DNA of 64,000 bases from an uncultured Methanosarcinales archaeon (GCA_964552945.1 CAZKIP010000005.1:2643-66642), one strand, 5' to 3'; shown: positions 18,858-59,698, counted from the first letter of the stretch. The notes: generated by a model from the letters alone, not told the origin. Numbers and translations: made by a program.

Positions 18858-18858
18858 T

Positions 18859-19473
18859 TTACAACCTCTTAAACCTTGGAACTTTTTCTCCATTAAGTTC
18901 AACATTTTCAAAAAATGTTTCTTTCGGTTTAACCCAAAGAGGATTTTTTCCAAACTCTTCAGAATCATACAACCCTCTGTAAACAACATATTCTTCTAAA
19001 GTATCACTATGAACTCCTGAATAAATTAACTCATATTTATTTCCCTTATAATGTTGAAATTTGTTTGAAAAAGGACTATATCCTTGTTTTAATAAATTAA
19101 CAATAGGTTCAAATAAAGGAGAAGGTGCATCTTCCCATGCAAACCAAGAGAACTCTTTAGTTTTATCAGGTTCCATTATTTTTACTTCTCCTGAAGCAAT
19201 TTCTCCAATCATAAAAATAGTTATGTAATGCTTATCCTCTTTTAGAAAAAAGTCGTTGGTAAGAGTTGCAAACCGGACATTTTTAAGTTCTACATCAAAT
19301 TCTTCTTTAGTTTCTCGTTTTGCACATTCTTCAAAGGTTTCATTAAATTCTAAATGTCCTCCTGGAAATGACCAAGTTCCTTCACCATGAGCTCCAATTC
19401 GTTTCTGAAAAAGAACTTTATTATCTTTAACAATAATTACTCCCACTCCTACTTTTGGCAAATTCATAACCAT
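18859..19473 (-). CDS. NUDIX hydrolase fused to a C-terminal DUF1653 domain
   Basis: Nudix box GGHLEFNETFEECAKRETKEE; C-terminal YKGNKYELIY...HSDTLEEYVVYRGLY...LWVKP...PRF matches the DUF1653 pattern. Confidence 0.7.
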   Translation of the reverse strand: MVMNLPKVGVGVIIVKDNKVLFQKRIGAHGEGTWSFPGGHLEFNETFEECAKRETKEEFDVELKNVRFATLTNDFFLKEDKHYITIFMIGEIASGEVKIMEPDKTKEFSWFAWEDAPSPLFEPIVNLLKQGYSPFSNKFQHYKGNKYELIYSGVHSDTLEEYVVYRGLYDSEEFGKNPLWVKPKETFFENVELNGEKVPRFKRL

Positions 19474-23975: not shown

Positions 23976-25025
23976 ATGAAAAAAGTAATGATATATGGAT
24001 TGATAATAGTTTCTTTGATAGTTCTAGCTGGATGTGCTCAATACAAAGCCATCGACACTCAAAACGATGAAGATCTTAGCTTAATTGATGAAATTGCAAA
24101 AATTGAAGAAGAATTAGCTCAAGAAGAGATTAAGGAAGATACAACACCAGAAGAAACCACTGATACTGCAGAAGAAGCAGTGGATGAAACAGTAAATGAA
24201 GAAGAAGTTGTAATTCCTGATTTAGATGAAGCAGCAGTAATGAATACAGAAGCAGTAACCATCTCAGTAAAAGAAAATGAGTTAGTTAAAGTTAATGCTA
24301 AAGTTTCAGACCCTGATGAAGATCCAGTTACTTATACTTTCAGCAAACCTCTAAACAATAATGGAGAATGGAAAACCAATTATGGAGATGCAGGAGAATA
24401 CATGGTTACTTTAAAAGCTACAGATGGAAAATTAACCACCGAGAAAGTAATCAAGCTTGTAGTTGAGAGAGTGAACGTTCCTCCAGTTATCGATGGTGTT
24501 AAAGATATAACTATCCTAGAAGGAGAAACGGTTACTTTTGAACCTAAAGTAACAGACCCAAACAACGATGCCGTTACAGTTACAATCTCTGAACCATTGA
24601 AAAGTGGAACTTTTGTAACTGACCATACCAGTTTTGGTGAATACAATATTGTTGTAAGTGCTTCAGATGGAGAATTGGATACTGAAAAAACTTTCAAACT
24701 TACAGTAAACAATGTAAATGAAAAACCAGTTATCTCTGGTCTTGAAGACTTGAAGATTAAGGAAGGAGACGTTGTTAAACTTAAACCAACCGTAACTGAC
24801 TTGGATGAAGACCCAATCACTTTAACTATAAGTGAACCGGTTGGCGACGATGGAATCTGGGCAACATCTTACACAGATAATGGGGAATATGTTATCACTG
24901 TTACTGCAGATGATGGACAAGACAAAATTGTTCAAAAAGTAACTATAACAATTGAGGATATTAACAAAGCTCCAGAAATTGTAGATATTTCCTTAGGACC
25001 AAATAGTCCTGCTGTGAGTAGTTAA
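23976..25025 (+). CDS. Cell-surface lipoprotein with three cadherin/Ig-like repeat domains
   Basis: Lipobox signal MKKVMIYGLIIVSLIVLAGC; Glu-rich linker; ~95-aa repeats sharing DPDEDPVTYTF...W.T.YGDAGEY.V...A.DG; strong GGGGGTG SD. Confidence 0.6.
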   Translation: MKKVMIYGLIIVSLIVLAGCAQYKAIDTQNDEDLSLIDEIAKIEEELAQEEIKEDTTPEETTDTAEEAVDETVNEEEVVIPDLDEAAVMNTEAVTISVKENELVKVNAKVSDPDEDPVTYTFSKPLNNNGEWKTNYGDAGEYMVTLKATDGKLTTEKVIKLVVERVNVPPVIDGVKDITILEGETVTFEPKVTDPNNDAVTVTISEPLKSGTFVTDHTSFGEYNIVVSASDGELDTEKTFKLTVNNVNEKPVISGLEDLKIKEGDVVKLKPTVTDLDEDPITLTISEPVGDDGIWATSYTDNGEYVITVTADDGQDKIVQKVTITIEDINKAPEIVDISLGPNSPAVSS

Positions 25026-25081: not shown

Positions 25082-27439
25082 ATGAAACATAAAATTGTTA
25101 AACTAGTTTTAGGTGTGGTAATCCTAATTTTAATTCTACAAACCGTTTTTGCCGCCACAAGAGTTTTTCAAGTACAAGAAACAGATTTTGTGAAAATAAA
25201 TGCTAAAGCGATAGACCCAGATTTGGATAAAGTAACTTACCAATTTGGAGAACCACTGGATCAAGATGGCGAATGGCAAACAACCTATGGAGATGCGGGA
25301 GAGTATGAAATTGATGTTAAGGCATCTGATGGAAAAAATGAAACTATCAAAAAAATAAAATTGGTAGTTACTAAAAGAAATCAAGCACCCTATGTTAAAG
25401 AAAAAAAGTTAGTGGCAAAAGAATCTAAAACAGTTAATTTAAAAGAAGCTATCGTTGACCCAGATGGAGATGTTTTAACTTACACATTTAAAGCTCCTTT
25501 TAACGAAAAAGGCGTTTGGCAAACTAATTTTAACGATGCGGGAGAACACACCGCTTCATTTACAGTAACTGATGGAGAATTCTTAATAGAAGCAAAGGTA
25601 AACGTCGTAATTGAGGATAAAAATCAACCCCCTTTCATTGACAACATTTTCTCTGAAGAGGATAAATTAGAGTTTAATGAAGGTGAAGAGTTAAATTTTT
25701 CTGTAAAAGTAAGAGACATAGATAGTGAAAATATTGATTATATTTGGAAATTGGATGGGGCAAAAATTAGTGAAGATAATGAAGGAGAACATGAATTTGA
25801 TTACGATTCTTCCGGTGAACACCAATTGGAACTTCAGGTTAGTGATGGAGAAAACAATATAGAAAGAAGTTGGAAAATTGAAATTGAAAACACCAATAGA
25901 AAACCTGCATTAAGTCTAGAACCAATAACCGTTAATGAAGGAGAATTAGTAAAGTTAATTCTTCCCGGTAAAGATCAAGATGGAGATTCCCTTACCTATG
26001 AACTAGAAAAACCTTTAGATAGTAATGGAAAATGGAAAACTGATTTTGAAGACGCGGGAAAATATTTTGCCGAAGTTGTTGCAGATGATGGGGAATATAA
26101 ATCTCAAACAGAAGTTGAAATAAATGTAGTTGATGTTGACAGAATCCCTACTTTAAACGTACCAACCAGGCTAGAAGTGAAAGAAGGAGAGAAACTTTCT
26201 TGGACAATTGATACTACAGACCCAGATAATGATGTCCTCGACATTAAAGTAATCAATGCACCAGAAGGTTCAATTCTTAATAAGAAAGTCTTTTCATGGG
26301 AACCTGATTTCTCAGCGATAAAAAGAAAGGGTGGATTTGTGAGTAATGTTTTAAATTCGTTAAATTTAGAAAGGTTTTTTCTAAAAATGAAAGTTATCCC
26401 TCTAAAAATTAAAGTATGTGGAAAAAGTTTATGTAATAATAAAGAGTTAGAGTTGGTTGTCTACAATGTAAATCGTCCTCCAGTTATGCAAGGACAAAAA
26501 AACTATACAATTCAAGAAACTGAAGAATTGACAATTGTGCCTTCTGCAATAGACCCAGACGGAGATATTGTTAAGTATGCTTTCTCATCACCAGTTCAAA
26601 AAAGAAGTGGTAAATGGAAAACTAGTTTTGATGACGAAGGGATTTATGATATCTATGTATCTGCCACTGATGGGAGATTTACTGACACATTACCTTTTGT
26701 TGTGAATGTAAAGAAAAAGAATCGTGGGCCTTCATTAAATGTTGATAAAGATGAATTTGTTATTTTAGAAGGTAAAAAGCTATCGTTCAAAGTTACCGCT
26801 TCAGATCCTGATGAAGACAATTTGAATATTGAATTAGAAAATCTTCCTCCTGGAGCTTCGTTTAAAGATGAAACATTTATTTGGACTCCTTCAAAAGAAT
26901 TTGTTAAGAATAAAAGTTCTGGAACCATAAACAAAATATTACAAAAATCTTCATATCTTATCAAAAAATTTAGTGATGACGAAAAAACGCATTGGTTAAA
27001 ATTTTCTGCAGACGATGGAGAAACAAAAACAATTCATCCAGTAAAAGTTATTGTTAAAAACAAAAATCAGGCACCTAAGATCATTGATTATCTTCCTATG
27101 AATAAAACACTTTTTACAGAAGTTAACAAACCTTTAATTTTCCACGTTACAGCAACCGATTCTGATAACGATAAGTTAAGTTACGAATGGAGTTTTGATT
27201 TTGGACAGCAAAAAGTTAGAGGGACTGATACTATTGAAAGAACTTTCCTTACTCCTGGAGAAAAAAAGGTCAAAGTCAAAGTAACTGACGGACTAGAAAC
27301 AGTTGAAAAAGAATGGATGGTTTCTGTACAAGAAGTTCTCTATCCTACTCCAGTTATAATTTCAAATCCTACTCAAAATGTACCTCAAGCACTATCTCCT
27401 CCTGAAACTGAAACTTTTAGGGTAATTGTTATTGAATAG
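25082..27439 (+). CDS. Cell-surface protein with ~8 cadherin/Ig-like repeat domains (paralog of upstream gene)
   Basis: Signal peptide; repeated DPD.D.LTY.F..P....G.W.T.F.DAG.Y motif units along 785 aa. Confidence 0.6.
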   Translation: MKHKIVKLVLGVVILILILQTVFAATRVFQVQETDFVKINAKAIDPDLDKVTYQFGEPLDQDGEWQTTYGDAGEYEIDVKASDGKNETIKKIKLVVTKRNQAPYVKEKKLVAKESKTVNLKEAIVDPDGDVLTYTFKAPFNEKGVWQTNFNDAGEHTASFTVTDGEFLIEAKVNVVIEDKNQPPFIDNIFSEEDKLEFNEGEELNFSVKVRDIDSENIDYIWKLDGAKISEDNEGEHEFDYDSSGEHQLELQVSDGENNIERSWKIEIENTNRKPALSLEPITVNEGELVKLILPGKDQDGDSLTYELEKPLDSNGKWKTDFEDAGKYFAEVVADDGEYKSQTEVEINVVDVDRIPTLNVPTRLEVKEGEKLSWTIDTTDPDNDVLDIKVINAPEGSILNKKVFSWEPDFSAIKRKGGFVSNVLNSLNLERFFLKMKVIPLKIKVCGKSLCNNKELELVVYNVNRPPVMQGQKNYTIQETEELTIVPSAIDPDGDIVKYAFSSPVQKRSGKWKTSFDDEGIYDIYVSATDGRFTDTLPFVVNVKKKNRGPSLNVDKDEFVILEGKKLSFKVTASDPDEDNLNIELENLPPGASFKDETFIWTPSKEFVKNKSSGTINKILQKSSYLIKKFSDDEKTHWLKFSADDGETKTIHPVKVIVKNKNQAPKIIDYLPMNKTLFTEVNKPLIFHVTATDSDNDKLSYEWSFDFGQQKVRGTDTIERTFLTPGEKKVKVKVTDGLETVEKEWMVSVQEVLYPTPVIISNPTQNVPQALSPPETETFRVIVIE

Positions 27440-29795: not shown

Positions 29796-30497
29796 ATGGC
29801 TAAAACCAGAAAAAAAGTAAGAGAACACAAAACAAGAAAGAAGCCTCACTCAGAGATACTTACAGTTATGTTTATTGATATCGTTAGTTATACAAAAACT
29901 ACTGCAAATTTGAGTAGAGAAAGGTTTGATGAGTTACATGAAACATTTGATGAACTTTCCCTTCCTGTATTTGAGAAGCATGAAGGAACCGTAATTAAGA
30001 AAATTGGAGATGCTTTCATGATAACTTTCAAAACTGCGACAGACGCGGTTCTTTGTGGGATGGATCTTCAGAATACTTTTAGAAGTTACAATAGAGAGTA
30101 CAAACTTAAAATGCCTCTTCAAATAAGGGTGGCTTTACACGCAGGAGAAGTTTTAGTTAGAAAAGGTGATGTTTATGGGGATACCGTTAACACTGCTGCT
30201 AGAATAGAAGGAATTGCTTCTGCTAACGACATTTATTTCAGTGAATCGGTTTATAATGCCATGAATAAAAAAGAAATTCCTTACTTATTTATTGGCCAAA
30301 GGAAGTTGAAAGGATTAAAAGTTCCGCTTAGAATTTTCAGGGTTAAGAATTCTTTGGATAGGAAGAAAGAGAGACAAAGAAAGTTAAAAAGAATGAAGAA
30401 AAGGTTTTACAGGTTTTTATGGAAGATCTTTGCTTTGGCTGCTTTACTTGGTCTGCTAATTTTCATTTATGTTTATTTGATTAGAAATTTCTATTGA
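29796..30497 (+). CDS. Class III adenylate/guanylate cyclase catalytic domain with C-terminal membrane anchor
   Basis: FIDIVSYT...KKIGDAFMITF...TVNTAARIEG core motifs; basic stretch then a TM helix at the C-terminus. Confidence 0.65.
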   Translation: MAKTRKKVREHKTRKKPHSEILTVMFIDIVSYTKTTANLSRERFDELHETFDELSLPVFEKHEGTVIKKIGDAFMITFKTATDAVLCGMDLQNTFRSYNREYKLKMPLQIRVALHAGEVLVRKGDVYGDTVNTAARIEGIASANDIYFSESVYNAMNKKEIPYLFIGQRKLKGLKVPLRIFRVKNSLDRKKERQRKLKRMKKRFYRFLWKIFALAALLGLLIFIYVYLIRNFY

Positions 30498-30578: not shown

Positions 30579-31232
30579 ATGTGGGTAGCAAAAATAAAAT
30601 ATCAACACGATGACTGTGTCACAACACCAAAAGCAGTAAAACATGGTATTACTATATTTGCTACTCCAGGGAGTTCTTATAATGATGATAAATACCTATA
30701 TAACACAGGATTCTTAATGTTACGAGGTTCTGAGAAAGGAAAGAAAGGATTTATTAGAGATCTCAAAAAAGATAAGAGAGTAATTAAAGTTGAGGTAAAT
30801 AAAGATTTAGCTATTTTTGTTGAAAGGATACCAAATGAAAAAAAAGAATATTCGGCTTTTAGATCAAAAGAAATTATGGTTGTTAAACCAGTACATGTAA
30901 ATCCAAATGATGGTTATGAATACTGGGAGATATGTTCATGGGATAAGAAACACATTAACAAATTTTTTACAGATATTAAAAAAATTGGTACAGCTAAATT
31001 ATTAAGTATTAAAAAAATGAAACTGAATGATGTGTATCATTTTCACGTAAGTCCAAACCTTACATCTAAACAAAAAGAAGCTTTAGATTTAGCAATGGAA
31101 TATGGCTACTTTAACGTCCCACGAAAAGTTGATTTGGATGTATTGGCAAAAAGAATGAAGATTTCTAGACAAGCGTTTTCTGAACATTTACGAAAAGCAG
31201 AAGCAAAACTTCTACCAGTTTTAACTGAGTGA
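30579..31232 (+). CDS. Transcriptional regulator with C-terminal HTH_10 (bacterio-opsin-activator-type) domain
   Basis: C-terminal TSKQKEALDLAMEYGYF..PRKVDLDVLAKRMKISRQAFSEHLRKAEAKLL matches HTH_10; N-terminal ~150 aa unassigned. Confidence 0.55.
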   Translation: MWVAKIKYQHDDCVTTPKAVKHGITIFATPGSSYNDDKYLYNTGFLMLRGSEKGKKGFIRDLKKDKRVIKVEVNKDLAIFVERIPNEKKEYSAFRSKEIMVVKPVHVNPNDGYEYWEICSWDKKHINKFFTDIKKIGTAKLLSIKKMKLNDVYHFHVSPNLTSKQKEALDLAMEYGYFNVPRKVDLDVLAKRMKISRQAFSEHLRKAEAKLLPVLTE

Positions 31233-36139: not shown

Positions 36140-36234
36140 ATTCTTTTTTTGAAAGCATAGTTTCATAGTTACGAAAGTCAGAAGTTTAACAACTTAGAAA
36201 ACTATATAAAGGAGAACTATGTTCTAGAATAAGG

Positions 36235-36507
36235 ATGGAGCAAAAAGAGGAGAAACTATCACGAGCGATTAGTGCCTATTCTAGAAGACAAATTCTTAGA
36301 CTTCTTGCAGATAAAGAATTAACCGTAAAAGAAATTGCTGCTAAGACCAATCTTTCTGTTTCCCTTGCCTCAAGACATCTAAAATTACTATATGATCTTG
36401 GTTTTCTAACTGTAAGAAAAGAATATCCTTTCAAATATTATTCTCTTAAGATAAAAGAAATGAAAAGCTTGCTTGAAATGTACGATAAGGTAATTAAAAA
36501 AATATGA
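36235..36507 (+). CDS. ArsR-family winged-helix transcriptional regulator
   Basis: RRQILRLLADKELTVKEIAAKTNLSVSLASRHLKLL HTH typical of ArsR/SmtB; stop overlaps the next start (ATGA). Confidence 0.6.
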   Translation: MEQKEEKLSRAISAYSRRQILRLLADKELTVKEIAAKTNLSVSLASRHLKLLYDLGFLTVRKEYPFKYYSLKIKEMKSLLEMYDKVIKKI

Positions 36508-39500
36508 AAAGAAAAATAAGAAGTAAAAAAGCGGAGAAATGCCTGCACAAGGAAAGAGTTATCCTAGTAATGTTACTCTCAGCAGTACTGCTATTCTTCT
36601 TAGCAAGTAGTCCAAACTTTGGAACTAAAACTATTGTCGATTCGGTAGATTATTTTAATCAAGTTAGCTTATTTGATGGGAGTTCTATAACAGGAGCAGC
36701 CGTTATTGGCATATCTAGTACCGACAATGACGATGATTTAGGAACTTTTGTTGATGATTTTGCTGATGGGATAAGTAATACTTCAAGATGGTTCAATCAT
36801 ACAACTAGAATGACCATACATCATGAAAATGAATTGATGAGATTTAATGCCTCATTAGCTTCAACTGAAGGAAACGCATCAATTATAACTATAGAGAATT
36901 TGTCTATGCATTCATTTAATATAACTGCAAATGTAACCTTACAAAATACATCAGATAGTCTTTCTACTGATGCATTGGCAACAATAGAATTAAGTTTATT
37001 TAACCAAACTAACCTTTCTCAAACCACAACATGTTCAGTAAATTTAGAAGAATCCTCAGGTGGAGCATATTATTTATATTTCGGAAACTCCACCACAAGT
37101 AATCCACCTCCAACAATTATTAATGCAGAAATGGCAAATATTGGAGATAATTTGACAGGACTCCTGAGAATGGAGTATATTAATGACACTGAAACAATCA
37201 ATTGTACTTTTACCACTGGATTTGATTCTTACTCTGTCAAAGGTGTTACTAAAGACATAGGACAAGATTTTGGAGCAGGCATTTTATCACAATTAACTAC
37301 TCAAGGAGGTGCCGCTTCAGGTGATGTGAATGCCACAATTGCGTCATTTAATTATAGTTTGGCTCCAGTTGCAAGTGCAAATAACGAACCTACCTCTACC
37401 ATCCTTCTAAACACAACAGATTTAACAGCAAACGATACCAATCAAAACTTAACAGCTTATTCAGAGACAAGTGATTTAGACAATGATGATGTATTTGTTG
37501 TTTACAATTGGTTATTAAATGGTTCATCTGTGATGGTCCTAAACATGCCTTTCTTGCCAAATGACAATAATGAAAGTGCTTCTACCCACAACTATGCTCT
37601 TGGTGATAATGGAAATAATACAGGAGGGGCATCATGGAACTCCACAGGAGGTTTTGATTTCAATGGCAGCTATGAATTTGATAGTATCGATGATTATCTT
37701 TCTTTAGAAAATTCCGGCCAATATGAACCTACCATGAATTTTAGCATAGAAGCATGGGTTTATGTAAAAGGCAGTGGAAACAACGGAGGACAAAATGGAA
37801 TCGTTAATAAAGACGGAGGGTTCAACGATGGTTTTAATTTTGCGATTGGTGATTCTTCTGCCCCAACAGTAAATTTTGGAACTGGAGATTCTGGAGCCAG
37901 TGACATTGAAACAATCACAGAATTAAATCTCAACGAATGGACCCATGTTGTTGCTTCATATAATGGAAGTAATACTTCAATTTACATCAATGGCGCGTTA
38001 GACTTTGTTGGTACAAGAACTGGTGCTTTAGCCTATAGTACAGGCGATTTAGAAATAGGAAGAAATAGGGATACACCACCCGGACAGGAAGGATATTTCA
38101 ATGGTTCCATTGACAACGTTAGAATTTGGAATATAACTTTAACCCCTGAACAAATTTCTGCTCTTTACAAAAATAGAACAGACCTAATCGTTTCACAAGA
38201 ATTAAGTGTAGGAGATAATTGGACAGTAGATGTAACTCCAAACGATGGAGTTCTTGATGGAGCAATTAATAGATCTAACGATTTGTTGGTGTTAGATGTT
38301 ACTGCACCAGCAGCCAACAATGACCCTACCTCTACCATCCTTCTAAACACAACAGATTTAACTAAAAATGATACCAATCAAAACTTAACAGCTTATGTAG
38401 ACACAAGTGATTTAGATGCTGATACAGTAAACGTTGTTTACAACTGGTTATTAAATGGTTCATCTGTGATGGTCCTAAATATGCCTTTCCTACCAAATGA
38501 TGGAAATGAAACTGCTTCTACCCACAACTATGCTCTTGGAGATAATGGAAATGTTACTGGTGCTACATGGAATTCTACAGGTGGTTTTGATTTCAATGGC
38601 AGTTATGAATTTGATAGTGTTGATGATTACATTTCTATAAGAGATAGAAGTGAGTTTGAATTAACCTCAAATATAACAATAGAAGCGTGGTTCTATTTGA
38701 AAGGCAATGGGAGCACAGGGATTAGTGGTCTTTTAAATAAAGATGGTGGGTTTGGCAATGGATTTGATATTGAATTAGGAACTGATGATCTTTTGAATGT
38801 AGCTTTCAACACCGGAGATTTTGGATCAACAACTTTAGAAACTGCTGCAAACGCAATTTCTCTTAACAGATGGACCCATTTGGTAATAATGTATAATGGA
38901 AGCAATACTTCTATTTATATTGATGGCGCTTTAAATGTAGTTGGTACGAAAACTGGCGCATTAACTTACAGCACTGGAGATTTAGAGATAGGTAGGGCAA
39001 TTAACTCCAGTGGACAAGAGGGTTATTTCAATGGTTCCATAGATAACGTTAGAATTTGGAATAGAACTTTAACCCCTGAACAAATTTCTGCACTCTACAA
39101 AAACAGGACAGATTTAATAGTTTCTCAAGAATTGAATGTAGGAGATAATTGGACAGTAGATGTAACTCCAAACGATGGAGTTCTTGATGGAGCAATTAAT
39201 AGATCTAACGATTTGTTGGTGTTAGACATAGTTGCAGCTGCTCCTAGTTGTGGAACTCTTACTTCTAATACTACTTTAACAGAGGACATTAATTCTACTG
39301 AAACATGTTTCACTATTGGTGCTCATGGAATTACTTTAGATTGTGATAATTATTTAATCAACTATTCCACAGAAGGTAGCGGAAATGGAATAGATAATAC
39401 AGGATATCACAACGTAACAATTAAAGATTGTAGGATTGAACAATACGGAAATACAGGAGAAGCAATTCTATGGGATGACGCTAGAAGTGGTAAATTAATT

Positions 39501-42425
39501 AACAACACCATTATAACTTACACTGCAACATCGCCAGCAATTTTTATACCTCCAAATTCCAATAATACTTATATCACAAAAAACAACCTAACTACAAAAG
39601 ATAACTCTTATGCCCTAGATGTTGTTGGAAGAGACAACAACATTACAAATAATACCTTTTTATCAACTAATTCAGCTGGGATAAGAGTTGTTTATGCTCA
39701 AGGGGTGAAGAATTTATTCAAAAACAATTTCATCCAAGGATATCCTTTTGGTTCCATTGGAATTGATGTAAACAACCTCAATAATACTTTTTTAAACAAT
39801 ACAATAATCATGAATAGTTCTTCATCATGGGGAGTTCGTATTACAGATGGTAACTACACTCATCTTGAAAACAATACAATAAATGTAACAGGAGCAACAA
39901 GCTATGGGATATATCTTTCTGATAGTTCTGAAAGAAACTCTTTAATTAACAATCTTCTAGAAACTAATTCCTCAGATTCATTTTCAATTTTCGATGAAAC
40001 TGATGACAATAAAATAAATTATATGAGTTACATTAACGCATCAAGCAAAATTGAATGGGTGGATAATGGATCAAGAAGTTTCTTAAGAAATTTAACTTTT
40101 AATGGGACCATTGGTCCAAATACAAACATTTATTTAGGAAATGGAACCGTAGCTGTCGATACATCGGCATTTGACAATGGAAAAATTAATTCTACTGTCA
40201 ACATTACTTTTTATGGATTAGATTTAGAATTTGCAGATGCAGTTATCAAAATCCATAGTTTTAGCACAGATGGTGTAACCATAGATAGTTCAGGTTCAGA
40301 TTGTGTAGGAGATTCTTGTGAGATTATTAGTTACACTGGAGGGACTTTAAGATTCAATAGTACATCATTGGGAAGTTTATTTGCAAACAACTCAGAGGAT
40401 TTAACTCCACCAAATGTAACCATCCTAACTCCAATAAACACAAGTAATTTTTCAAAAACATCTAGTAATCAAACATTTAACGTAAGTATTAATGAGGCTA
40501 ATATTTATGGGGTATTATTCATTTTTGATAATGGTTCTGGAGTAGATTTCAACATTACAGCAAATAACAATTCGGGATATTGGGCTGCACCATACAACGT
40601 TTCCACTTTGGCAGAAGGAACACAAACAGTTAGAGTGTCTGCAAATGATACGGCAGGAAACATAAATAGTACACAACAGGTTACAATTACAACAGATTAT
40701 ACAGCCCCAAATGTAACTATCATCTCACCAACTAACAGAAGCAATTACTCCTTTACTTCAAGCAATCAAACGTTCAACACATCAGTATTTGATGCAAACA
40801 TCAAAACAGTCTGGTTCTCATTTGATAATGGAACGGGAACAGATTTTAACATTACAGCAAATAATAACTCTGGGTATTGGGCTGCACCATACAATGTATC
40901 AACACTAGCAGAAGGAACACAAACAATAACGATTATAGCAAACGATTCAGCAGGAAATGTAAACACAACACAAAGCATTACAATAACAACTGATTACACT
41001 GTACCTGTAGTTAACATCACATTCCCAACTAACGGAACCAATTTCAGCATTGGATCTTATAATCAAACTTTCAATGTAAGTATCCAAGAAAGAGACATAG
41101 GAACTGTCTTATTTAATTTTGATAATTCATCCGGAACAGGATTCAACCTTACTCCAACAAATCAATCAGGATATTGGGTAGCTAGTTACAATGTTTCAAA
41201 GCTAGCAAATGGAACACACCTATTAACAATTTTAGTTAACGACACTGTAAACAATAAAAATAATACGCAAACAATAAATTTCACTTTTGATAATAGAACA
41301 ATGCCTGTCGCTCCTGCCCCTGCAGGTGCAGGAAATACAGGAAGTAGTGGAGGAGGAGGTTCAAGTTCCTCCTCTGATTCAGGAGGGGGAGGGTCCCTTC
41401 CAATAAAAGAACCCGCTCCTAAATCGGTTGCCCCTGAAGATTTTGAAAAATCAGAAAAAGATGTTGTAGAAGAAAAAGTAGAAAAAGAAGATTCAAGTGA
41501 ACAAGTAGATTCAAAAGGAGTAGCCGCAACTACTATAAAAGCCCTTAAATCTGCCAAGTCTACTTTTAGCGCAACTGGGAAAGCATTTTTCTCTGGAGAA
41601 TTTTTATTAGATATGTCTGGGGTTTGGATTCTATTAATCTCCCTAATGTTACTTTCTGTATTGTTATTATTTGTTACCTTTAGACACAAGAAGCGCTTTA
41701 TCCCTTATTATGTTTCAGATTATCCCTCTCCAGAATTACAAGTTGAAAGAACCAGCCATTTACGCCAATTAAGATCACAAGTAAGAAATGCGGGTGCTGG
41801 AGTTAAGAGAGAAATTAGTTCTTTATTAGCTAAAGGAAGAATTCATCAAACTTCTTTGAAATGGCTACAGAATTGGGTCGAAACGATGCAAGGCAAAGGA
41901 GATTCGGAAGCTAAAATAAAGAGCTTATTACAACATAATCCTAATGTGACCCCTCAGATGATTAAAGTGGTTTTAGATAGAATAAAAGCTAAAAAGTTAT
42001 TGCAGAAGAAATATTCTCTATCCTTAAAAGAATTAGAGAAAATTGAAAAAGTGGTACTTAAGTTAGTTAAAAAAGGAAAAACCATCTCTGAGATAAAATC
42101 TATCTTCTCTGAAAATGGGTGGGATTCTTCAATCCTAGGTCCTTTTATTGAAGCATATTCCAAACTAGTACGTAAAAGAAAATTTGTTGCTTATGGTGCA
42201 CTTCAAATTTCACAAAAATTAGCAAGAAAAATGGTCAAAAAAACTCACAATTTATCTTCCATCGAGATAAAACAATTAGAATCTTTCATTGACGATTGTT
42301 ATAATAGAAACATTCCTATGGGGGAAGTAGTTGATGGTTTGGTTGAAAGTGGATGGACTTACAAGGAGATTGATTCATTGGTTAGAATACGTTATCGGAT
42401 GGGCCTTTATAATGTTGTCCTATGA
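36504..42425 (+). CDS. Giant (1973 aa) cell-surface protein: signal/TM, two LamG-like domains, right-handed beta-helix region, three Ig-like repeats, G/S/P linker, TM anchor and ~270-aa cytoplasmic tail; extremely rich in N-x-S/T sequons
   Basis: LamG signatures (W.HV...YNG.N.SIYING...GYFNGSIDNVRIWN) twice; NNTI/NNLT beta-helix repeats; three ~95-aa repeats (P.NVTI..P.N.SN.S....NQTFN ... SGYWAAPYNVSTLAEGTQT); C-terminal TM VWILLISLMLLSVLLLFVTF. Confidence 0.7.
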   Translation: MKRKIRSKKAEKCLHKERVILVMLLSAVLLFFLASSPNFGTKTIVDSVDYFNQVSLFDGSSITGAAVIGISSTDNDDDLGTFVDDFADGISNTSRWFNHTTRMTIHHENELMRFNASLASTEGNASIITIENLSMHSFNITANVTLQNTSDSLSTDALATIELSLFNQTNLSQTTTCSVNLEESSGGAYYLYFGNSTTSNPPPTIINAEMANIGDNLTGLLRMEYINDTETINCTFTTGFDSYSVKGVTKDIGQDFGAGILSQLTTQGGAASGDVNATIASFNYSLAPVASANNEPTSTILLNTTDLTANDTNQNLTAYSETSDLDNDDVFVVYNWLLNGSSVMVLNMPFLPNDNNESASTHNYALGDNGNNTGGASWNSTGGFDFNGSYEFDSIDDYLSLENSGQYEPTMNFSIEAWVYVKGSGNNGGQNGIVNKDGGFNDGFNFAIGDSSAPTVNFGTGDSGASDIETITELNLNEWTHVVASYNGSNTSIYINGALDFVGTRTGALAYSTGDLEIGRNRDTPPGQEGYFNGSIDNVRIWNITLTPEQISALYKNRTDLIVSQELSVGDNWTVDVTPNDGVLDGAINRSNDLLVLDVTAPAANNDPTSTILLNTTDLTKNDTNQNLTAYVDTSDLDADTVNVVYNWLLNGSSVMVLNMPFLPNDGNETASTHNYALGDNGNVTGATWNSTGGFDFNGSYEFDSVDDYISIRDRSEFELTSNITIEAWFYLKGNGSTGISGLLNKDGGFGNGFDIELGTDDLLNVAFNTGDFGSTTLETAANAISLNRWTHLVIMYNGSNTSIYIDGALNVVGTKTGALTYSTGDLEIGRAINSSGQEGYFNGSIDNVRIWNRTLTPEQISALYKNRTDLIVSQELNVGDNWTVDVTPNDGVLDGAINRSNDLLVLDIVAAAPSCGTLTSNTTLTEDINSTETCFTIGAHGITLDCDNYLINYSTEGSGNGIDNTGYHNVTIKDCRIEQYGNTGEAILWDDARSGKLINNTIITYTATSPAIFIPPNSNNTYITKNNLTTKDNSYALDVVGRDNNITNNTFLSTNSAGIRVVYAQGVKNLFKNNFIQGYPFGSIGIDVNNLNNTFLNNTIIMNSSSSWGVRITDGNYTHLENNTINVTGATSYGIYLSDSSERNSLINNLLETNSSDSFSIFDETDDNKINYMSYINASSKIEWVDNGSRSFLRNLTFNGTIGPNTNIYLGNGTVAVDTSAFDNGKINSTVNITFYGLDLEFADAVIKIHSFSTDGVTIDSSGSDCVGDSCEIISYTGGTLRFNSTSLGSLFANNSEDLTPPNVTILTPINTSNFSKTSSNQTFNVSINEANIYGVLFIFDNGSGVDFNITANNNSGYWAAPYNVSTLAEGTQTVRVSANDTAGNINSTQQVTITTDYTAPNVTIISPTNRSNYSFTSSNQTFNTSVFDANIKTVWFSFDNGTGTDFNITANNNSGYWAAPYNVSTLAEGTQTITIIANDSAGNVNTTQSITITTDYTVPVVNITFPTNGTNFSIGSYNQTFNVSIQERDIGTVLFNFDNSSGTGFNLTPTNQSGYWVASYNVSKLANGTHLLTILVNDTVNNKNNTQTINFTFDNRTMPVAPAPAGAGNTGSSGGGGSSSSSDSGGGGSLPIKEPAPKSVAPEDFEKSEKDVVEEKVEKEDSSEQVDSKGVAATTIKALKSAKSTFSATGKAFFSGEFLLDMSGVWILLISLMLLSVLLLFVTFRHKKRFIPYYVSDYPSPELQVERTSHLRQLRSQVRNAGAGVKREISSLLAKGRIHQTSLKWLQNWVETMQGKGDSEAKIKSLLQHNPNVTPQMIKVVLDRIKAKKLLQKKYSLSLKELEKIEKVVLKLVKKGKTISEIKSIFSENGWDSSILGPFIEAYSKLVRKRKFVAYGALQISQKLARKMVKKTHNLSSIEIKQLESFIDDCYNRNIPMGEVVDGLVESGWTYKEIDSLVRIRYRMGLYNVVL
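37385..39236 (+). repeat. Near-identical ~930-bp tandem duplication inside the giant surface-protein gene (copy 1 ~37385-38315, copy 2 ~38323-39236)
   Basis: Long stretches identical between copies (e.g. 38190-38300 vs 39128-39236); also shown by identical antisense ORF peptides at 38165-38377 and 39125-39313. Confidence 0.75.
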
Positions 42426-42570
42426 AGAATTCTCTAAACCACGATCACATGATTGGTCTCCGAAAACATCTCTCAAGAACCGCAACCTTTATAAAGCCCT
42501 GCTCTCTATTTTTTATACTACTTTATCGTCGATAAAATAACTTATAAAAATCTTAAATTATGTATTAAAA

Positions 42571-45033
42571 ATGACCCATTCAGAAATACAAAAAAGCTCA
42601 GATCATGACAAAATTGTTCCTCGTGTTATTGAGGAGGAAATGAAGACAGCTTACATTAATTATGCCATGTCAGTTATTGTAGGTAGGGCCCTTCCAGATG
42701 TCAGAGACGGCTTAAAACCAGTGCATAGGAGGATCCTATATGCTATGTTTGAAATTGGTTTAACTCACAATAAGTCTTTTAAAAAATGTGCTAGAATTGT
42801 AGGTCAAGTTTTAGGTGCATATCATCCTCATGGTGATGCTTCAGTTTACGATGCTTTGGTGAGAATGGCACAAGATTTCTCGCTCCGTTATCCATTAATT
42901 AGGGGACAGGGTAATTTTGGTTCCATTGATGGTGATTCTGCAGCTGCATATCGTTATACAGAAGCTAAGTTAAACAAGTTTGCTGAGGAACTTCTCAAAG
43001 ATATTGATAAAAAAACAGTTATTTTTAAAGACAATTTTGACGGTTCTCTACAAGAACCTTCGGTTCTTCCATCTAAGATTCCTAACCTTTTGGTAAATGG
43101 TTCTTCTGGTATCGCCGTAGGAATGGCTACCAACATCCCCCCTCACAATTTAACTGAAGTTTGTGAAGGAGTTATTTCATTAATTGATAATCCTGAAATT
43201 ACTGTTGAAGAATTAATTAAAATTATTCCTGGTCCCGATTTTCCTACTGGGGGGACTATTAATTGTGGGAGTGCTCTTTATCATGCTTATGCTCACGGGA
43301 AAGGTAAAGTAACAATAAAAGCGGTATCCGATGTTACGGATAGTAAAATAATTATTAGCGAGATTCCTTATCAAGTTAACAAGGAAGAGATGATTAAACA
43401 AATTGCTAATTTAGTTAGAGACAAAGTTATTACAGGAATTCGTAATATTAACGATGAATCTGATAAAGATGGGATTAGGGTTGTAATTGATCTTAAACAA
43501 GGTACAGATGGTCAAGTCATTTTAAATCAACTTTACAAACATAGTCGTTTAAAAATTTCTTTTGGGATGAATATGCTGGCTTTAGTAGATTCTCGGCCTC
43601 GAGTTCTTGGATTGAAAGATATTTTGCATTATCACATTCTCCATAGAAAAGAAGTAATTACCAATAAAACAAAATATGAGTTGGAACAAGCTCAGAAGAG
43701 GGTCCACATTTTAGATGGATTACTTGTTGCGCTTAACAATATTGATGAAATTATTCCAGGTATAAAGAGAAGTAGGACAGTAGATGAAGCAGAACTATTT
43801 CTAATGGAAGGATACTCTCTTTCTAAGATTCAAGCCAAAGCCGTTTTAGAGATGCGATTACAGAAATTGGCTTCTTTGGAGCAAGATAAAATTAGGGATG
43901 AACACAAAAGTTTATTGGAAAAAATTGAAGAATTTTTAGCAATTTTATCTTCTGAAGAAAAAGTTCTAAACATTATCAAGCAAGAAATGGAAGAAATGAA
44001 AAACAATTATGGAGATGAAAGGCGTTCACAAATTGTTATTGGGGATGATGACGGCGGATTTGACATTGAAGAATTGATTGAAGAAGGAACCGCTGTTGTA
44101 ACTCTTACCAATGCAGGATATGCAAAAAGACTGTCTATTGATACCTATAAAGTTCAACATAGAGGGGGAAGGGGGGTAAAAGCTGCTGGAACAAAAGATG
44201 AAGATTTTGTAGAAAGATTATATGTTACTTCAACTCACGATTATCTTCTTTGTTTTACCGATAAAGGACAAGTTTACTGGCTTAAAGTTTATTTAATACC
44301 TGAAGGAAGTCGTCAATCTAAAGGGAAACATATCGCAAATTTACTTGAACTTAAAGAAGGAGAAAAAATAAATGCCATAATCCCCGTCCGTGATTTTAAA
44401 GAAGGCTATCTATTCATGGCAACTAAGAAAGGAACGGTTAAGAAAACTGAACTAACTTGTTTCTCAAAACCTCGAAAAGGAGGAATTAGGGCCATTGCTC
44501 TAGATGATGACGACTCTTTAATTGGTGTTAAACATACTTCTGGAGAGAAAGAGATTATATTAGCTACCAAAGAAGGTCAAGCAAATCGTTTTAATGAACA
44601 AAATGTCCGTCCAATGGGTAGAACAGCAAGAGGAGTTCGAGGAATTCGTCTTAAGGGAGAAGAAGATTATGTTATTGGTATGATTATTGCAGAAGAAGGT
44701 AAAAATATTCTTACTTTGACAGAGAAAGGTTATGGTAAAAGAACTCCAATTAGTGATTATCGGTTATGTAATAGAGGAGGGAAAGGAGTTACAAACATTA
44801 AGGTTACAGAAAAGAATGGTCCAGTTCAATCTATCAAAGTAACAAGTGGCGATGAAGAATTAATGCTTGTATCTAAGCAAGGTATTGGAATAAGGATAAG
44901 ATGTGATTCTATCTCAACTATTGGAAGGGCTACTCAAGGAGTTAGAGTGATGAGATTGGGCGAAGGAGATCAACTTGCTGCCGCAGCAAAAATTGTTATT
45001 GAAGATGAAAATGTGGAAGAAACTGAAGAATGA
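42571..45033 (+). CDS. gyrA: DNA gyrase subunit A
   Basis: N-terminal [28 protein letters not shown], active-site Tyr region, GyrA-box [12 protein letters not shown] and C-terminal beta-pinwheel repeats; 820 aa. Confidence 0.85.
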
Positions 45034-56421: not shown

Positions 56422-56799
56422 ATGGCTAATACAAAACAAATCGAAAACAATGTTATAGAATCATTTCAATTGGCTAAAAAGGACATTTCAATCCTATTTG
56501 ACCAAGTTGCTAAACTAAGGAAAGAACTTTCTCAGTTAAACGCAGCTCGTTATGAACTTTCACTAGAAGTAAAAAAACTTTCTTCAAAAAGAAAAGTTTC
56601 TAGAAAAAAAGTTTCAACTAAAACTAAATCTAAACCTTCAGTGAGCAAAAAATATGTTGCTTCAAAGAAAGGTAAAAAAGTACACAATCCAAACTGTTTC
56701 TTTGCATCAAATATTGATAAAGAAAATAGGGTTGTTTTTAACACCAAAACAAAAGCACTTAATGAAGGATTTAGATTGTGTAGCTGTCTAGCTTACTAA
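56422..56799 (+). CDS. Coiled-coil protein with Lys-rich linker and C-terminal Ada-type zinc-binding domain
   Basis: C-terminal HNPNCFFAS...ENRVVFNTKTKALNEGFRLCSC resembles the Ada metal-binding domain (...PSC...V.F.....A...GFRPCKRC); AGGAGG SD 8 nt upstream. Confidence 0.4.
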   Translation: MANTKQIENNVIESFQLAKKDISILFDQVAKLRKELSQLNAARYELSLEVKKLSSKRKVSRKKVSTKTKSKPSVSKKYVASKKGKKVHNPNCFFASNIDKENRVVFNTKTKALNEGFRLCSCLAY

Positions 56800-57890
56800 G
56801 GCAACCAAGTTTTTTTATTCTTAATTTTTTCTGGAAGATAGGTATCAACAACATAATTCAATCCCCATTTAGCCAATGCTTGCTGTTCTGCCCTTACTTT
56901 CATCTTAGCCATTTGTTGTAAAGCTTTTTGCCACGGCTTATGGTGTTTAATAAAGGGATCGTTCTTAATCAAATCTTTAATTTTCTTAATATCTACATCT
57001 TTTAAAGGGTGAGAGGGTAATTTGTAGTTTACAATATCTTGTGGAGTAATTCCTATGAATTGTGCTTGAGGAACACAGAAATATTTGTTAATGTGGGCAG
57101 CATTACCCGAACCAACTTTCAAAGTTCTGTAAATGGAACCAAATCCGTAAGGGTCTCCGTCTGTAAAAACGTATACCGGCAACTTTTTTTCATCTGCCAA
57201 CTTTCTAATAAACCTTCGACATGCTCTTGTAGGAACTCCTCCCATAGCGATTAGGATACAATTTGCTTTTCTCCAATATTTATGTTTGTTTAGACGTTCA
57301 AACATACCGCTTGTTTCAATAGCTAGAACAAATTTAGCTTTTGTTTTGAATTTTAAATGTTCTACCGAACTTGGAACTGAATAAGCACCAGAACCGAACT
57401 TTGTACAATCAATCTCTAAACTCTTTCCAGTTTCTTGATCTTTATCAACAACTACCAATTCTCCAGCAACCGCCCCTCCCTTTTCTTCAGGGATGAAACC
57501 TATCTGTTCTCTGTTAACGGCCATCATTGCTTCGATATCATCCATCACGGAATCTGATTCTGGTTGTTCCTTAAAGCGCGCATCTCCCCAGTTTTTACTT
57601 ACATAATAAGCTTCTCTTTTGGTTGCAATATCTTCAGTTTCAATAAGCTCTTTAGAAAGACCCATCATTCTCAATGTTTGAGCAAACGTTTTAATTGTGG
57701 ATGCTGTCAGAGTCCTTGTTTTAACTTTATGTAATAATTTGAAATATCCTTCTTTGTCATCATAAGAAACATTACTTAGGGATCTAATTGGCATTTCTAA
57801 CTGTGGAGATTTAATTAGTTTGATTTTACCATAGACTTCTTTTGCTACTTCCTTAATCTTTTCTACAACTTGGTTATCTTTTTTAGCCAT
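56796..57890 (-). CDS. top6A: DNA topoisomerase VI subunit A (Spo11-like)
   Basis: Toprim region LIAMGGVPTRACRRFIRKL...VYVFTDGDPYGF and winged-helix catalytic region; 364 aa. Confidence 0.85.
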   Translation of the reverse strand: MAKKDNQVVEKIKEVAKEVYGKIKLIKSPQLEMPIRSLSNVSYDDKEGYFKLLHKVKTRTLTASTIKTFAQTLRMMGLSKELIETEDIATKREAYYVSKNWGDARFKEQPESDSVMDDIEAMMAVNREQIGFIPEEKGGAVAGELVVVDKDQETGKSLEIDCTKFGSGAYSVPSSVEHLKFKTKAKFVLAIETSGMFERLNKHKYWRKANCILIAMGGVPTRACRRFIRKLADEKKLPVYVFTDGDPYGFGSIYRTLKVGSGNAAHINKYFCVPQAQFIGITPQDIVNYKLPSHPLKDVDIKKIKDLIKNDPFIKHHKPWQKALQQMAKMKVRAEQQALAKWGLNYVVDTYLPEKIKNKKTWLP

Positions 57891-57898
57891 TTTAATTA

Positions 57899-59698
57899 TT
57901 AATCAAATAATGTTTTTTGCCTTTCTCCTTTACTTTCTTCTTCATTCTCTTCTTCAGCATTTTTAGTTTCTTCTTTTTCTACTTCCTTCTCTACTTTTTC
58001 ATCATTTTTGACTTCTTTGTTTTCATTTTCCTTAGGTTCTTCTTTTCCAATTTTTGCTAATTCCGGATCATAATCTGGATTATTTACACCAATTTCTTCC
58101 AGCTCTCCTCTTGTGTGTTCTAAAATTTCACCCAGATTGTCTTCAATTATTTTTTTATTAATTTCATCAAATCCAATTATTTCTTTCAATGCATCTGCAA
58201 CATGGGGGATGTATTTTTCAATGTAACTTCTTTTCTTAGCTTCATCTTTTATCCTTTTCTTTTTATTAACAAAACTTGCAAGTTTACGCCCACACTCTTG
58301 CAATGATAATTTTATTTCTTTAATTATTCCATTGTAATGGGCCAAAGCTTCTTTAGATTCTGAAGTAAAAGGGACCCACACAGAAGTCATATGGATGACG
58401 ATGGTACAAGGACCTACAGGAATAGAACTTCTACTTTGTTGTAAACCATAATTTCTCCAGGAGGTATTTTGAACAGAATTGGTTATTGCACAAGCCCCTT
58501 GTTGGTATAGTAGAGGAACTCTATTTGCAAAACGCATAATTCTAACAGTGGAATCTGCAGATTGTTCTCCACCATAAGCCATTGCAGTTTCAATAACAAA
58601 AGGATTCCCTCTGTAAACACTAGCCGGTCTTGTGGCTGAACAATAGAACTCTGCATTTATTTCTTTCCTTAAACCTTTTTCTAACAATTCTGCGCCAATG
58701 GGGGAAATACAATCTGTAGGCGGAGAAATTATTTTTGTTTTTTGAATGCCTTTATACAAATTCTCTGCCATATCTCTCCCAATTTTTTTAGGTTTTGTTT
58801 TTGGCAATAAAGAAGAATTAGCACAAATTTCTTTAGCTGTACCTGCCCCTACTCTTACAAACTCGCTAGTTAGAAATTGTTGAAGAGTTTTTGCTGGAGT
58901 TGTTTCCAACATTTTGATAAGCCTTCCCAGTTCTATTCCATAAGGGTGGGGTTTAATCTCTTTAGGTTCTGGAGGTAAATCTTCGCTTGCTCTTGGAAAA
59001 ATAAATTGTTTTGCTTCAGGATTCGTATAAATTACTGTACAATGAGGATTTACAATAGCTGTTTGTTTAAGATATTCATCAACGGATTGTCTTCCTTTGT
59101 TGTAACTTCCTTCCATGTCAATCTCAATTTTGGTTCCGTGATCTTTTTCTTCCCATTCAATTTCTTCTTCTCCTAACAATTGAGGGTTGTTAGTTTGAGT
59201 GTTAATTTTTATCTTAACTAAGTTGGCCATTTCAGATTTACCAGTTTTAGAAACAATTGTGGCTGGTTTACCTGTAGTGAGTTGTCCATATAAAACGGCT
59301 GCCGAGATACCTATCCCTTGTTGTCCTCTGGTTGCAGATAGTTTATGGAATTTACTCCCATAAAGAAGCTTAGCAAAAATTTTTGGAATTTGTTTTTTAA
59401 TTATCCCTGGCCCGTTATCTTCTATGATTACCCTAAACCTACTATCACTTAGTTGAATAAGCTCCACATTTATCTCTGGCAAAATTCGTGCTTCTTCACA
59501 TGCATCTAGTGCATTGTCAACTGCTTCTTTCACAGCTGTCATCAAAGCTCTTCTTGGATTGTCAAAGCCTAATAAATGTCTGTTCTTTTCAAAGAATTCG
59601 GCAATTGATATCTCTCGATGTTTCTTTGCTAGTTCCTGAGCTGTCTTTTTAACCATTTGAAAAATGTAAAATTTAGTCTTTTTATAAGGTTTACTCAA
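57899..59698 (-). CDS. top6B: DNA topoisomerase VI subunit B (GHKL ATPase)
   Basis: Bergerat-fold motifs ELVDNALDA-like ([12 protein letters not shown]), [19 protein letters not shown]; transducer domain; Glu/Lys-rich tail. Confidence 0.85.

Follow-up and report, generated by a model that had tools for sequence, protein, structure and literature searches.

One stretch of archaeal DNA of 64,000 nucleotides (nt; GCA_964552945.1 CAZKIP010000005.1:2643-66642, hereafter called the window) contains a pair of plus-strand genes in which a small gene of the ArsR/SmtB regulator type overlaps the gene for a giant surface protein of 1973 amino acids (aa). The evidence given below indicates that this pair is probably an autoregulated two-gene operon for a surface protein that is predicted to be glycosylated and of the adhesin type. 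This evidence consists of the conservation of the gene pair, an operator-like palindrome at the same position ahead of the regulator gene in nine loci, and an excess of N-glycosylation sequons in the ectodomain of the giant protein. Proteins and loci found in searches are denoted by P and L numbers, and the coordinates of all features are given in Table 1.

Both open reading frames (ORFs), of 90 and 1973 codons, were found where a preliminary description of this DNA had placed them, with the TGA stop codon of the regulator gene and the ATG start codon of the giant gene sharing the sequence ATGA, a 4-nt overlap. The window has a guanine-plus-cytosine (GC) content of ~33% and encodes the archaeal markers NOG1-type GTPase, THUMP methyltransferase, topoisomerase VI A/B, RIO1 kinase, a KH/PNO1-like protein, and NFACT. 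The best matches to the giant protein carry the annotations Candidatus Woesearchaeota, Nanoarchaeota, Nanoarchaeia, or Micrarchaeia, and P0001 in NCBI-derived data is a protein identical to it. Therefore, on the basis of the nearest relatives of the giant and the archaeal markers in the window, the source is assigned to a DPANN archaeon that is Nanoarchaeota/Woesearchaeota-like.

The 90-aa protein exceeded the thresholds of both Pfam PF01022 (HTH_5; E = 1.9e-13, 50.5 bits relative to a cutoff of 22) and NCBIfam NF033788 (ArsR/SmtB; 60 bits relative to a cutoff of 55), in agreement with its earlier description as an ArsR-family regulator. It was found to contain no Cys and only one His residue (H48, in the recognition helix), and neither the alpha3 CxC nor the alpha5 His/Asp/Glu metal ligands of the metalloregulator subgroup were found in the 90 residues; because there is no Cys and a single His, the canonical metal site is absent. 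As judged from these residues, the regulator is a minimal, non-metal-sensing winged helix-turn-helix (wHTH) protein that groups with non-metal members such as HlyU. Its nearest solved relatives are the Vibrio HlyU structures (PDB 3jth, 4k2e, and 5znx; E ~1e-10 over aa 8-83), which represent an activator that is a similarly minimal wHTH protein of ~100 aa without metal-site residues. HlyU is an H-NS antagonist (according to the naming by the depositors) and governs genes for very large secreted toxins and adhesins. However, HlyU is bacterial and lacks translational coupling to its targets, whereas the archaeal regulator is coupled, and the similarity of only ~45 bits favors neither activation nor repression in the archaeon.

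The conservation of the pair was evaluated in related loci. The syntenic ortholog locus L005 has the gene order of the window (TctA, Na/H exchanger-TrkA, NOG1, a 90-aa HTH_5 protein, and the giant), and its last two genes likewise overlap by 4 nt. The P0014 locus also has a 90-aa HTH_5 gene, which shares 4 nt with the gene for a 2165-aa LamG protein. A metagenome search using the regulator alone yielded eight loci with regulator identities of 68-84%, one of which (L012) is a copy of another (L011). At L011, L012, L013, L015, and L018, the regulator gene has a 4-nt overlap with a gene encoding an anchored, sequon-rich protein with a basic N terminus and an (I/L)TGAA motif, and the complete giants among the loci found with the regulator are 1112, 2124, and 2323 aa in length. 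There is a 29-nt gap between the regulator and the downstream gene in L017, and in L016, a 1.8-kb contig with 2.3x coverage, no more than the first residues of a giant are left. The 4-nt overlap was present in eight of the nine sequenced junctions. Between the window and L005 the regulators are 71% identical and the giants ~40% identical, with two versus three LamG domains and a beta-helix that is present versus absent.

Two of the metagenomic loci carry variants of the pair. In L014 (349-612), an 87-aa protein consisting of a transmembrane (TM) helix, the sequence FTGHV, and a second TM helix overlaps the regulator gene (ATGA) in place of the giant, and it could be a minimal form or what remains after a deletion. 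In L018 (160-696), two wHTH copies are fused in tandem into a regulator of 178 aa, the gene of which keeps the 4-nt overlap with the sequon-rich gene, and this arrangement is compatible with a regulator that normally acts as a dimer. The ArsR partner was thus found to be kept at the orthologous loci (L005, P0014, and the eight metagenomic loci), and the idea of a dedicated small regulator gained support from a pairing kept across ~10 loci together with a conserved operator-like palindrome.

This palindrome was found by alignment of the 100 nt ahead of the regulator gene in nine loci. The family consensus, AGTTTCAyrGTTGTGAAACT, is a 9-2-9 inverted repeat that is perfect in L017. The position of the palindrome and its GTTTC/GAAAC cores are kept in the nine loci, whereas the flanking AT-rich intergenic DNA has diverged. 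The pattern GTTTC-N4-TT-N2-GAAAC gave a single match in the window, at the palindrome and with one mismatch, and exact matches in the fetched loci were found at the equivalent position only. A TTTCAC-like half-site, located between the palindrome and the TATA-like box in the window, is likewise conserved in position across the nine loci and occurs in two or three copies in L005, L015, and L018. The location of the palindrome upstream of the TATA-like box suggests an operator for a dimeric wHTH protein. In archaea, sites upstream of the B recognition element or TATA box are more typical of activation than of repression.

The TATA-like box is predicted to function as a promoter element on the basis of general archaeal promoter geometry, and it ends 24 nt before the regulator ATG in all nine aligned loci; therefore, the position suggests a leaderless or very short-leader mRNA. 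At the junction of the two genes, a Shine-Dalgarno (SD)-like sequence is contained in codons of the regulator gene, and the form AAGGTGAT is present 11-12 nt before the giant ATG in most loci. The sequence AAGGTG was present in six of the nine junctions, by use of AAG and GTG codons despite the GC content of ~33%. The SD-like sequence matches the anti-SD end of 16S rRNA and is compatible with a common mRNA from which the second cistron is also translated. Ahead of gyrA, the gene that follows the giant gene, there are an oligo-T tract and a TATA-like box of its own; therefore, the unit appears to be bicistronic, and these elements suggest that it ends after the giant gene. A scan for sigma-70 promoters and intrinsic terminators gave numbers below the shuffle expectation, with models that are uninformative for an archaeon.

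Domain profiles and hydropathy confirmed all the parts of the giant protein given in the preliminary description: the signal anchor, two LamG domains, the beta-helix, three immunoglobulin (Ig)-like repeats, the Gly/Ser/Pro linker, and the TM helix. Pfam PF13385 (Laminin_G_3) matched two stretches of the giant (3e-53), and aa ~293-935 are composed of two repeat units of ~315 aa with one Laminin_G_3 domain each, the boundaries of which were set by the positions of motifs (landmarks at aa 297/609 and 561/871). No Pfam match to the N-terminal ectodomain was obtained, and an AlphaFold2 (AF2) model of aa 37-309, based on a two-sequence alignment, had a predicted local distance difference test (pLDDT) score of 30.6 and no usable fold; conceivably this region is a third jelly-roll. 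A broad contig scan with the giant protein returned only weak LamG/Ig matches from unrelated organisms (L001-L004), which were not used.

Another characteristic of these proteins is a motif of the form (I/L)TG(A/N)A(I/V)(G), which was observed ~20-30 residues past the N-terminal hydrophobic segment in L005, L007, L012, L013, L015, L017, L018, and P0077. The related LTGNAI (aa 53-58) occurs in an unrelated 247-aa protein with a basic N terminus (window 13354-14097), and several proteins have a 'TG.A/GF'-like motif ahead of the C-terminal TM helix. The (I/L)TGAA motif might be a processing or sorting signal; we know of no description of it.

The sequon content of the giant was compared to that of 5000 composition-preserving shuffles, a comparison that had been set beforehand as a test of the claimed sequon density. 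It was found that the 1670-aa ectodomain between the two hydrophobic helices contains 111 N-x-S/T sequons (x being any residue except P), relative to 44.6 +/- 5.5 after shuffling (z = 12; shuffle maximum 65), and so the density is above the composition-corrected expectation. The reversed motif [ST]xN was present 44 times compared to 44.6 expected, and the tail contains 2 sequons compared to ~1 expected; the enrichment is confined between the two TM helices. As much as 53% of the ectodomain Asn residues are in sequons. The spacing averages one sequon per 15 residues and one per 7 in the Ig region, which is the densest part (11-14 per 100 aa), and so the statement that sequons occur every few residues was right about a strong excess and overstated the density. 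The non-repeated N-terminal domain and the beta-helix region are likewise enriched, and sequon counts are near expectation in the 44 remaining window ORFs of 150 aa or more.

The sequon excess extends to relatives of the giant, with z values of 6-20 in the DPANN homologs P0001-P0020 and of ~0 in the more distant LamG proteins P0021, P0022, and P0025-P0028. Alignment with the ortholog P0002 in three alignable regions (45-51% overall identity) placed 39 of the 52 sequons opposite a sequon, and Asn was conserved at 43/52 sequon positions versus 19/56 non-sequon positions (Fisher p = 2.8e-7). The excess over composition and the selective conservation of sequon Asn residues indicate that the sequons are under selection. 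N-glycosylation of the giant is predicted from these sequons, and the conservation of their positions is indirect evidence that N-glycosylation of such proteins is functionally important. Elsewhere in the window, adjacent genes for exported PKD/Big_9/cadherin-like proteins (23976-25025, with a lipobox-like LAGC, and 25082-27439) specify 0 and 5 sequons, numbers that do not exceed expectation, in contrast to the giant. Not every exported protein of this organism is sequon-rich.

The following sequence of events is proposed. Transcription from the promoter with the TATA-like box would yield an mRNA with a short leader or none, in which the first cistron would encode the minimal non-metal-sensing ArsR/SmtB-type winged-helix protein. 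A dimer of this regulator would bind to the 9-2-9 near-palindrome upstream of the TATA-like box and control its own synthesis and that of the product of the second cistron, which would be translated from the same mRNA by means of the ATGA overlap and the SD-like AGGTRAT in the last codons of the regulator gene. The product would be a fast-evolving, heavily N-glycosylated surface protein anchored by the C-terminal TM helix, with LamG lectin-like domains, a beta-helix, and Ig repeats that may bind to glycans or cell surfaces, most likely for attachment to a host or partner cell. The cytoplasmic tail would be an exchangeable helical protein-interaction module outside the conserved regulatory circuit. 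Binding of the palindrome by the regulator and co-transcription of the two genes are predictions from the arrangement of the sequences.

Several points weigh against this proposal. About 1.1 one-mismatch matches to the palindrome pattern are expected by chance in 64 kb, and so the single window match is uninformative alone; because the window count matches chance, the case for an operator rests on cross-locus positional conservation. The palindrome in the window is degenerate, with 5 of 7 arm positions complementary. The conservation of promoter elements could in part reflect shared ancestry of the HTH_5 loci, the regulators of which are close (68-84%), although the flanks have diverged, and the conservation of AAGGTGAT at the junction cannot be separated from that of the DKVI peptide which it encodes. 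Adhesion to a host is predicted from domain types only. Furthermore, no gene for AglB or a glycosyltransferase was found among the 46 scanned ORFs of at least 150 aa in the 64-kb window.

The cytoplasmic tail of the giant is 247 aa in length, less than the ~270 aa of the preliminary description, and as described there it is Lys-rich (12.6%) and predicted to be helical throughout. An AF2 model from a 10-sequence alignment had pLDDT values >90 for residues 60-160 and 170-240. A word-indexed search with the tail gave no matches, and exhaustive HMMER comparison with 1.84 billion representatives brought up eight proteins, and no more, at E <= 0.001. Further homologs, few in number and all from Nanoarchaeota-type metagenomes, came from a profile search. 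The module is located at the cytoplasmic C terminus of surface proteins in several contexts: LamG-TM-module in P0071, TM-module in P0072 and P0076, and five GW repeats after a TM helix in P0073. Small tail homologs were considered as stand-alone soluble proteins and rejected, as at least P0067 proved to be a fragment of the 2711-aa P0077 and most others are on contigs of 1-4 kb. P0077 and the window protein have the whole C-terminal cassette in common ('GGGGSLP' linker, spacer, TM helix, and tail; E = 7e-32).

A Foldseek search with the tail model returned nothing significant (best E = 0.18), and PDB and Pfam profile searches yielded nothing above threshold and no known signaling domain. Pfam matches of the tail to Cor1, TPR_DOP1, SapB_1, and wHTH-PRTase_assc were below cutoff and were discarded. 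The tail model resembles RecX (PDB 3c1d, 3e3v, and 3dfg) in having tandem three-helix repeats, three such units in the case of the tail, but there is no sequence or profile relation to RecX, and the resemblance is one of fold type only. On this model, the GW tail is a rare, DPANN-only, unclassified helical repeat module that is HTH-like. A different tail, charged and ending in 'ELxxIExELAKL', is present in the orthologs P0002, P0014, L012, L013, and L015, and in P0077 the GW tail is combined with an HTH partner of another family, described below. The tail type and HTH type assort independently; therefore, this speaks against a specific tail-regulator signaling pair.

These results bear on the function suggested for the tail in the preliminary description, namely transmembrane signaling or cytoskeletal anchoring, which found no support in that the tail is not conserved among orthologs and does not co-vary with the regulator. 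A specific version, in which the ectodomain senses contact and the tail binds or releases the wHTH protein in an anti-sigma-like manner, freeing it to act at the palindrome, is improbable in our view. All complete giants paired with HTH_5 regulators have a C-terminal TM helix and a long tail (239-250 aa where measured, in P0001, P0002, and P0014, with L012, L013, and L015 ending in the same charged tail), translational coupling would give a fixed stoichiometry, and the confident AF2 fold of the window tail, in three-helix units that are HTH-like, would suit contacts between proteins. However, a signaling pair is difficult to reconcile with a regulator that is 71-84% conserved and a tail that is the GW module in the window and an unrelated charged sequence in orthologs, or with the presence of the GW tail on P0077, whose HTH partner belongs to the other family. 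Moreover, most giants paired with that second family show no C-terminal TM helix or tail, and profile searches found no known signaling domain in the tail.

It is unlikely, although somewhat easier to accept, that the giant is an S-layer or main envelope glycoprotein and that the HTH gene merely sets its expression level. Variation among orthologs in the number of LamG domains (two versus three), in the presence of the beta-helix, and in length (1112-2323 aa) would be atypical of a lattice protein, L014 has an 87-aa mini-protein instead of a giant, and a folded cytoplasmic domain of 247 aa is not an S-layer feature; neither a conserved lattice architecture nor a short or absent cytoplasmic part was found in the giant and its orthologs. 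LamG and beta-helix domains are of the lectin/adhesin type and, in the DPANN literature, are assigned to host interaction (PMC7443923, PMC5498576). This is to be set against an ectodomain, a Gly/Ser/Pro stalk, a single TM helix, and many sequons, which is the layout of C-terminally anchored archaeal S-layer proteins, and against the location of the genes in a conserved housekeeping neighborhood (TctA, Na/H exchanger, NOG1 ... ribosomal L16 or gyrA) with unremarkable GC content and no obvious island. An incidental adjacency, of an unrelated or general regulator such as a stress or metal sensor and a protein with a sequon excess that is a by-product of Asn/Ser/Thr-rich repeats, is very hard to sustain and is largely refuted by these comparisons. 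The pairing is present in every related locus, including those in different neighborhoods, and is mirrored by a second HTH family, and the regulator is without metal-binding residues. ATGA overlaps are indeed common in compact genomes, and the internal repeats (two LamG and three Ig units) copy sequons and so somewhat inflate the shuffle z value, but these repeats show no enrichment of the reversed motif, the non-repeated N-terminal domain and beta-helix are enriched, and sequon Asn residues are selectively conserved. The autoregulated operon for an adhesin-type protein is thus the reading we prefer.

The second HTH family was found with more distant LamG giants in unrelated neighborhoods, P0004 (L006), P0007 (L008), P0011 (L009), P0013 (L010), and P0077. 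The genes ahead of these giants encode proteins of 152-181 aa with two sigma-70-region-4-like HTH repeats and not HTH_5, and they overlap or abut the start of the giant gene. The HTH_5 and sigma-r4-like genes are found at the same position; therefore, two HTH families occupy the slot ahead of giant LamG genes. Inspection by eye of the upstream DNA of the four sigma-r4-like loci revealed no motif in common. A second double-HTH copy (8888-9443) directly follows the giant gene in L009, where it presumably heads another giant. In addition, a gene for a ~410-aa protein with a signal peptide, a 'GIRPAKT' N terminus, and a C-terminal TM helix follows the giant gene in L006 (11053-12267), L008 (9367-10599), and L010 (8593-9834); this protein had no family match and is absent from the window, in which gyrA follows the giant gene.

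The description of the gene arrangement as unusual therefore needs qualification in view of these loci: a conserved, dedicated regulator is present, but an overlapping upstream HTH gene is the rule in this DPANN family, and the protein class had already been described. A tentative generalization, which we regard as possible but doubtful, is that Nanoarchaeota/Woesearchaeota-type DPANN contain a general 'HTH-adhesin cassette', with each giant headed by its own coupled HTH protein, two unrelated HTH families recruited for this role, a palindromic operator in at least the HTH_5 type, and surface proteins that are switched individually. If so, the switching might occur, for example, on contact with a host or for variation of the surface, and in the strongest version the exchangeable tails (GW or 'ELAKL') would feed cell-surface information back to the switch.

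In three reports (PMC7443923, PMC5498576, PMC10266531), LamG/ConA-like proteins that are large, secreted or anchored, and rich in N-glycosylation sites appear as a common and organism-specific feature of DPANN archaea (Nanohaloarchaeota, Micrarchaeota 'ARMAN' Mia14, and Woesearchaeota), with a predicted role in host-specific attachment. The window giant resembles these proteins in its multiple LamG and Ig/PKD-type repeats, many sequons, lineage-specific distribution, fast evolution, and DPANN origin. It has two PF13385 stretches, N-terminal export features, DPANN relatives, and an excess of sequons, and by its sequence it is a member of this known class. The SPEARE proteins of nanohaloarchaea are likewise giant DPANN surface proteins with a signal sequence, Ig-like ectodomains, a membrane anchor, and an intracellular part, but they are 5-9 thousand residues in length with a VirB4/TraG-like ATPase domain and a secretion ATPase gene downstream (PMC10266531), whereas the window giant has 1973 aa, a non-enzymatic helical tail of 247 aa, and a wHTH neighbor. 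A profile scan found no ATPase domain in the window giant, and the downstream gene is gyrA. In a limited and provisional check of partial literature texts, no description was found of the coupled HTH gene, the conserved palindrome, two HTH families in one slot, or the GW tail. What appears to be new here is the conserved unit of regulator and palindrome with the giant, and this unit resembles a dedicated switch for the surface protein.

DPANN archaea are considered dependent on physical attachment to their hosts, and the leading candidates for mediating it are giant LamG glycoproteins. The unit of regulator, operator, and adhesin, if correctly interpreted, provides a testable handle consisting of a 90-aa protein, a 20-bp DNA site, and a defined promoter that can be studied in vitro without culturing. 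Host-interaction genes in DPANN metagenomes could be located by a simple genomic signature, the pairing of an HTH gene with a giant gene, and the GW tail would be a new, DPANN-restricted cytoplasmic module on surface proteins that folds confidently in AF2.

Table 1. Coordinates of the regulator gene, the giant gene, and associated elements (window positions unless a locus is given)
Feature	Position	Strand	Basis and remarks
Near-palindrome AGTTTCATAGTTACGAAAGT, operator-like (putative)	36159..36178	+	~25 nt upstream of TATA-like box; 9 loci
Half-site-like element AGTTTAAC (AATTTCAC in relatives)	36183..36190	+	Between palindrome and TATA box; alignment
TATA-like box TATATAAA	36203..36210	+	Ends 24 nt before regulator ATG; TTTATAWA at same distance in all 9 aligned loci
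ArsR/SmtB-type winged-HTH protein, 90 aa, minimal	36235..36507	+	PF01022, NF033788
Gene junction, SD-like AAGGTAAT (AAGGTGAT in relatives) and ATGA overlap	36481..36507	+	In D-K-V-I codons of regulator, 12 nt before giant ATG
Giant LamG/beta-helix/Ig surface protein, 1973 aa, type-I-like membrane glycoprotein (predicted)	36504..42425	+	Domain profiles, hydropathy
Basic n-region (9 K/R in aa 1-17), then hydrophobic signal/anchor segment (aa ~19-35)	36504..36611	+	Hydropathy scan
N-terminal ectodomain, aa ~37-292	36612..37380	+	Common to ortholog P0002 only, 50% identical
Post-anchor motif ITGAAVIG, aa 62-69	36687..36710	+	(I/L)TGAA(I/V)G in all related giants
LamG/ConA-like domain 1, ~aa 385-545, in repeat unit aa 293-608	37656..38138	+	PF13385; Pentaxin aa 475-558; boundaries approximate
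LamG/ConA-like domain 2, aa 705-862	38616..39089	+	Best PF13385 stretch
Right-handed parallel beta-helix, aa ~1018-1188	39555..40067	+	PF13229 5.9e-12, NosD 8.4e-5; absent from P0002
Three tandem Ig-like repeats, aa ~1300-1600	40401..41303	+	Big_7, Big_13, Big_3_3; repeat starts aa 1304, 1403, 1502
Gly/Ser/Pro linker, aa 1600-1636, then acidic spacer	41301..41411	+	Sequence; near-identical 'GGGGSLP' linker in P0077
C-terminal TM helix, aa 1707-1726, then RHKKRF (positive-inside)	41622..41681	+	Hydropathy maximum 2.83
Cytoplasmic tail, 247 aa, aa 1727-1973, three three-helix 'GW' units	41682..42422	+	AF2; invariant Y111, G146, W147
Downstream intergenic region	42470..42570	+	Oligo-T tract and separate TATA-like box for gyrA, read from sequence
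Sigma-r4-like double-HTH genes	L006 3531-4004; L008 3478-4014; L009 3448-3993 and 8888-9443; L010 3490-4008		Also at P0077 locus

A gene for a T2SSE-family secretion ATPase of the type IV pilus or archaellum type was observed at 26-1909 of the window, 34 kb from the giant gene. In the 'ARMAN' archaeon Mia14, LamG genes are reportedly linked to type IV pili loci (PMC5498576).

Other genes of the window are noted briefly. A gyrase A of the bacterial type (42571-45033) is encoded alongside topoisomerase VI A and B (56796-57890 and 57899-59698). A gene for a protein with an adenylate/guanylate cyclase catalytic domain (29796-30497) adjoins a gene for an HTH_10 regulator of the bacterio-opsin-activator type (30579-31232), and it is possible that the two are a cyclic-nucleotide signaling pair in a reduced genome. 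On the minus strand at 17837-19473, the CmpB-like, AhpC/Redoxin, and NUDIX-DUF1653 ORFs, called from the first start codon, overlap one another by more than 100 nt, and their true starts are probably further downstream. Redoxin and CmpB genes are likewise grouped in L005, together with a YdjM gene.

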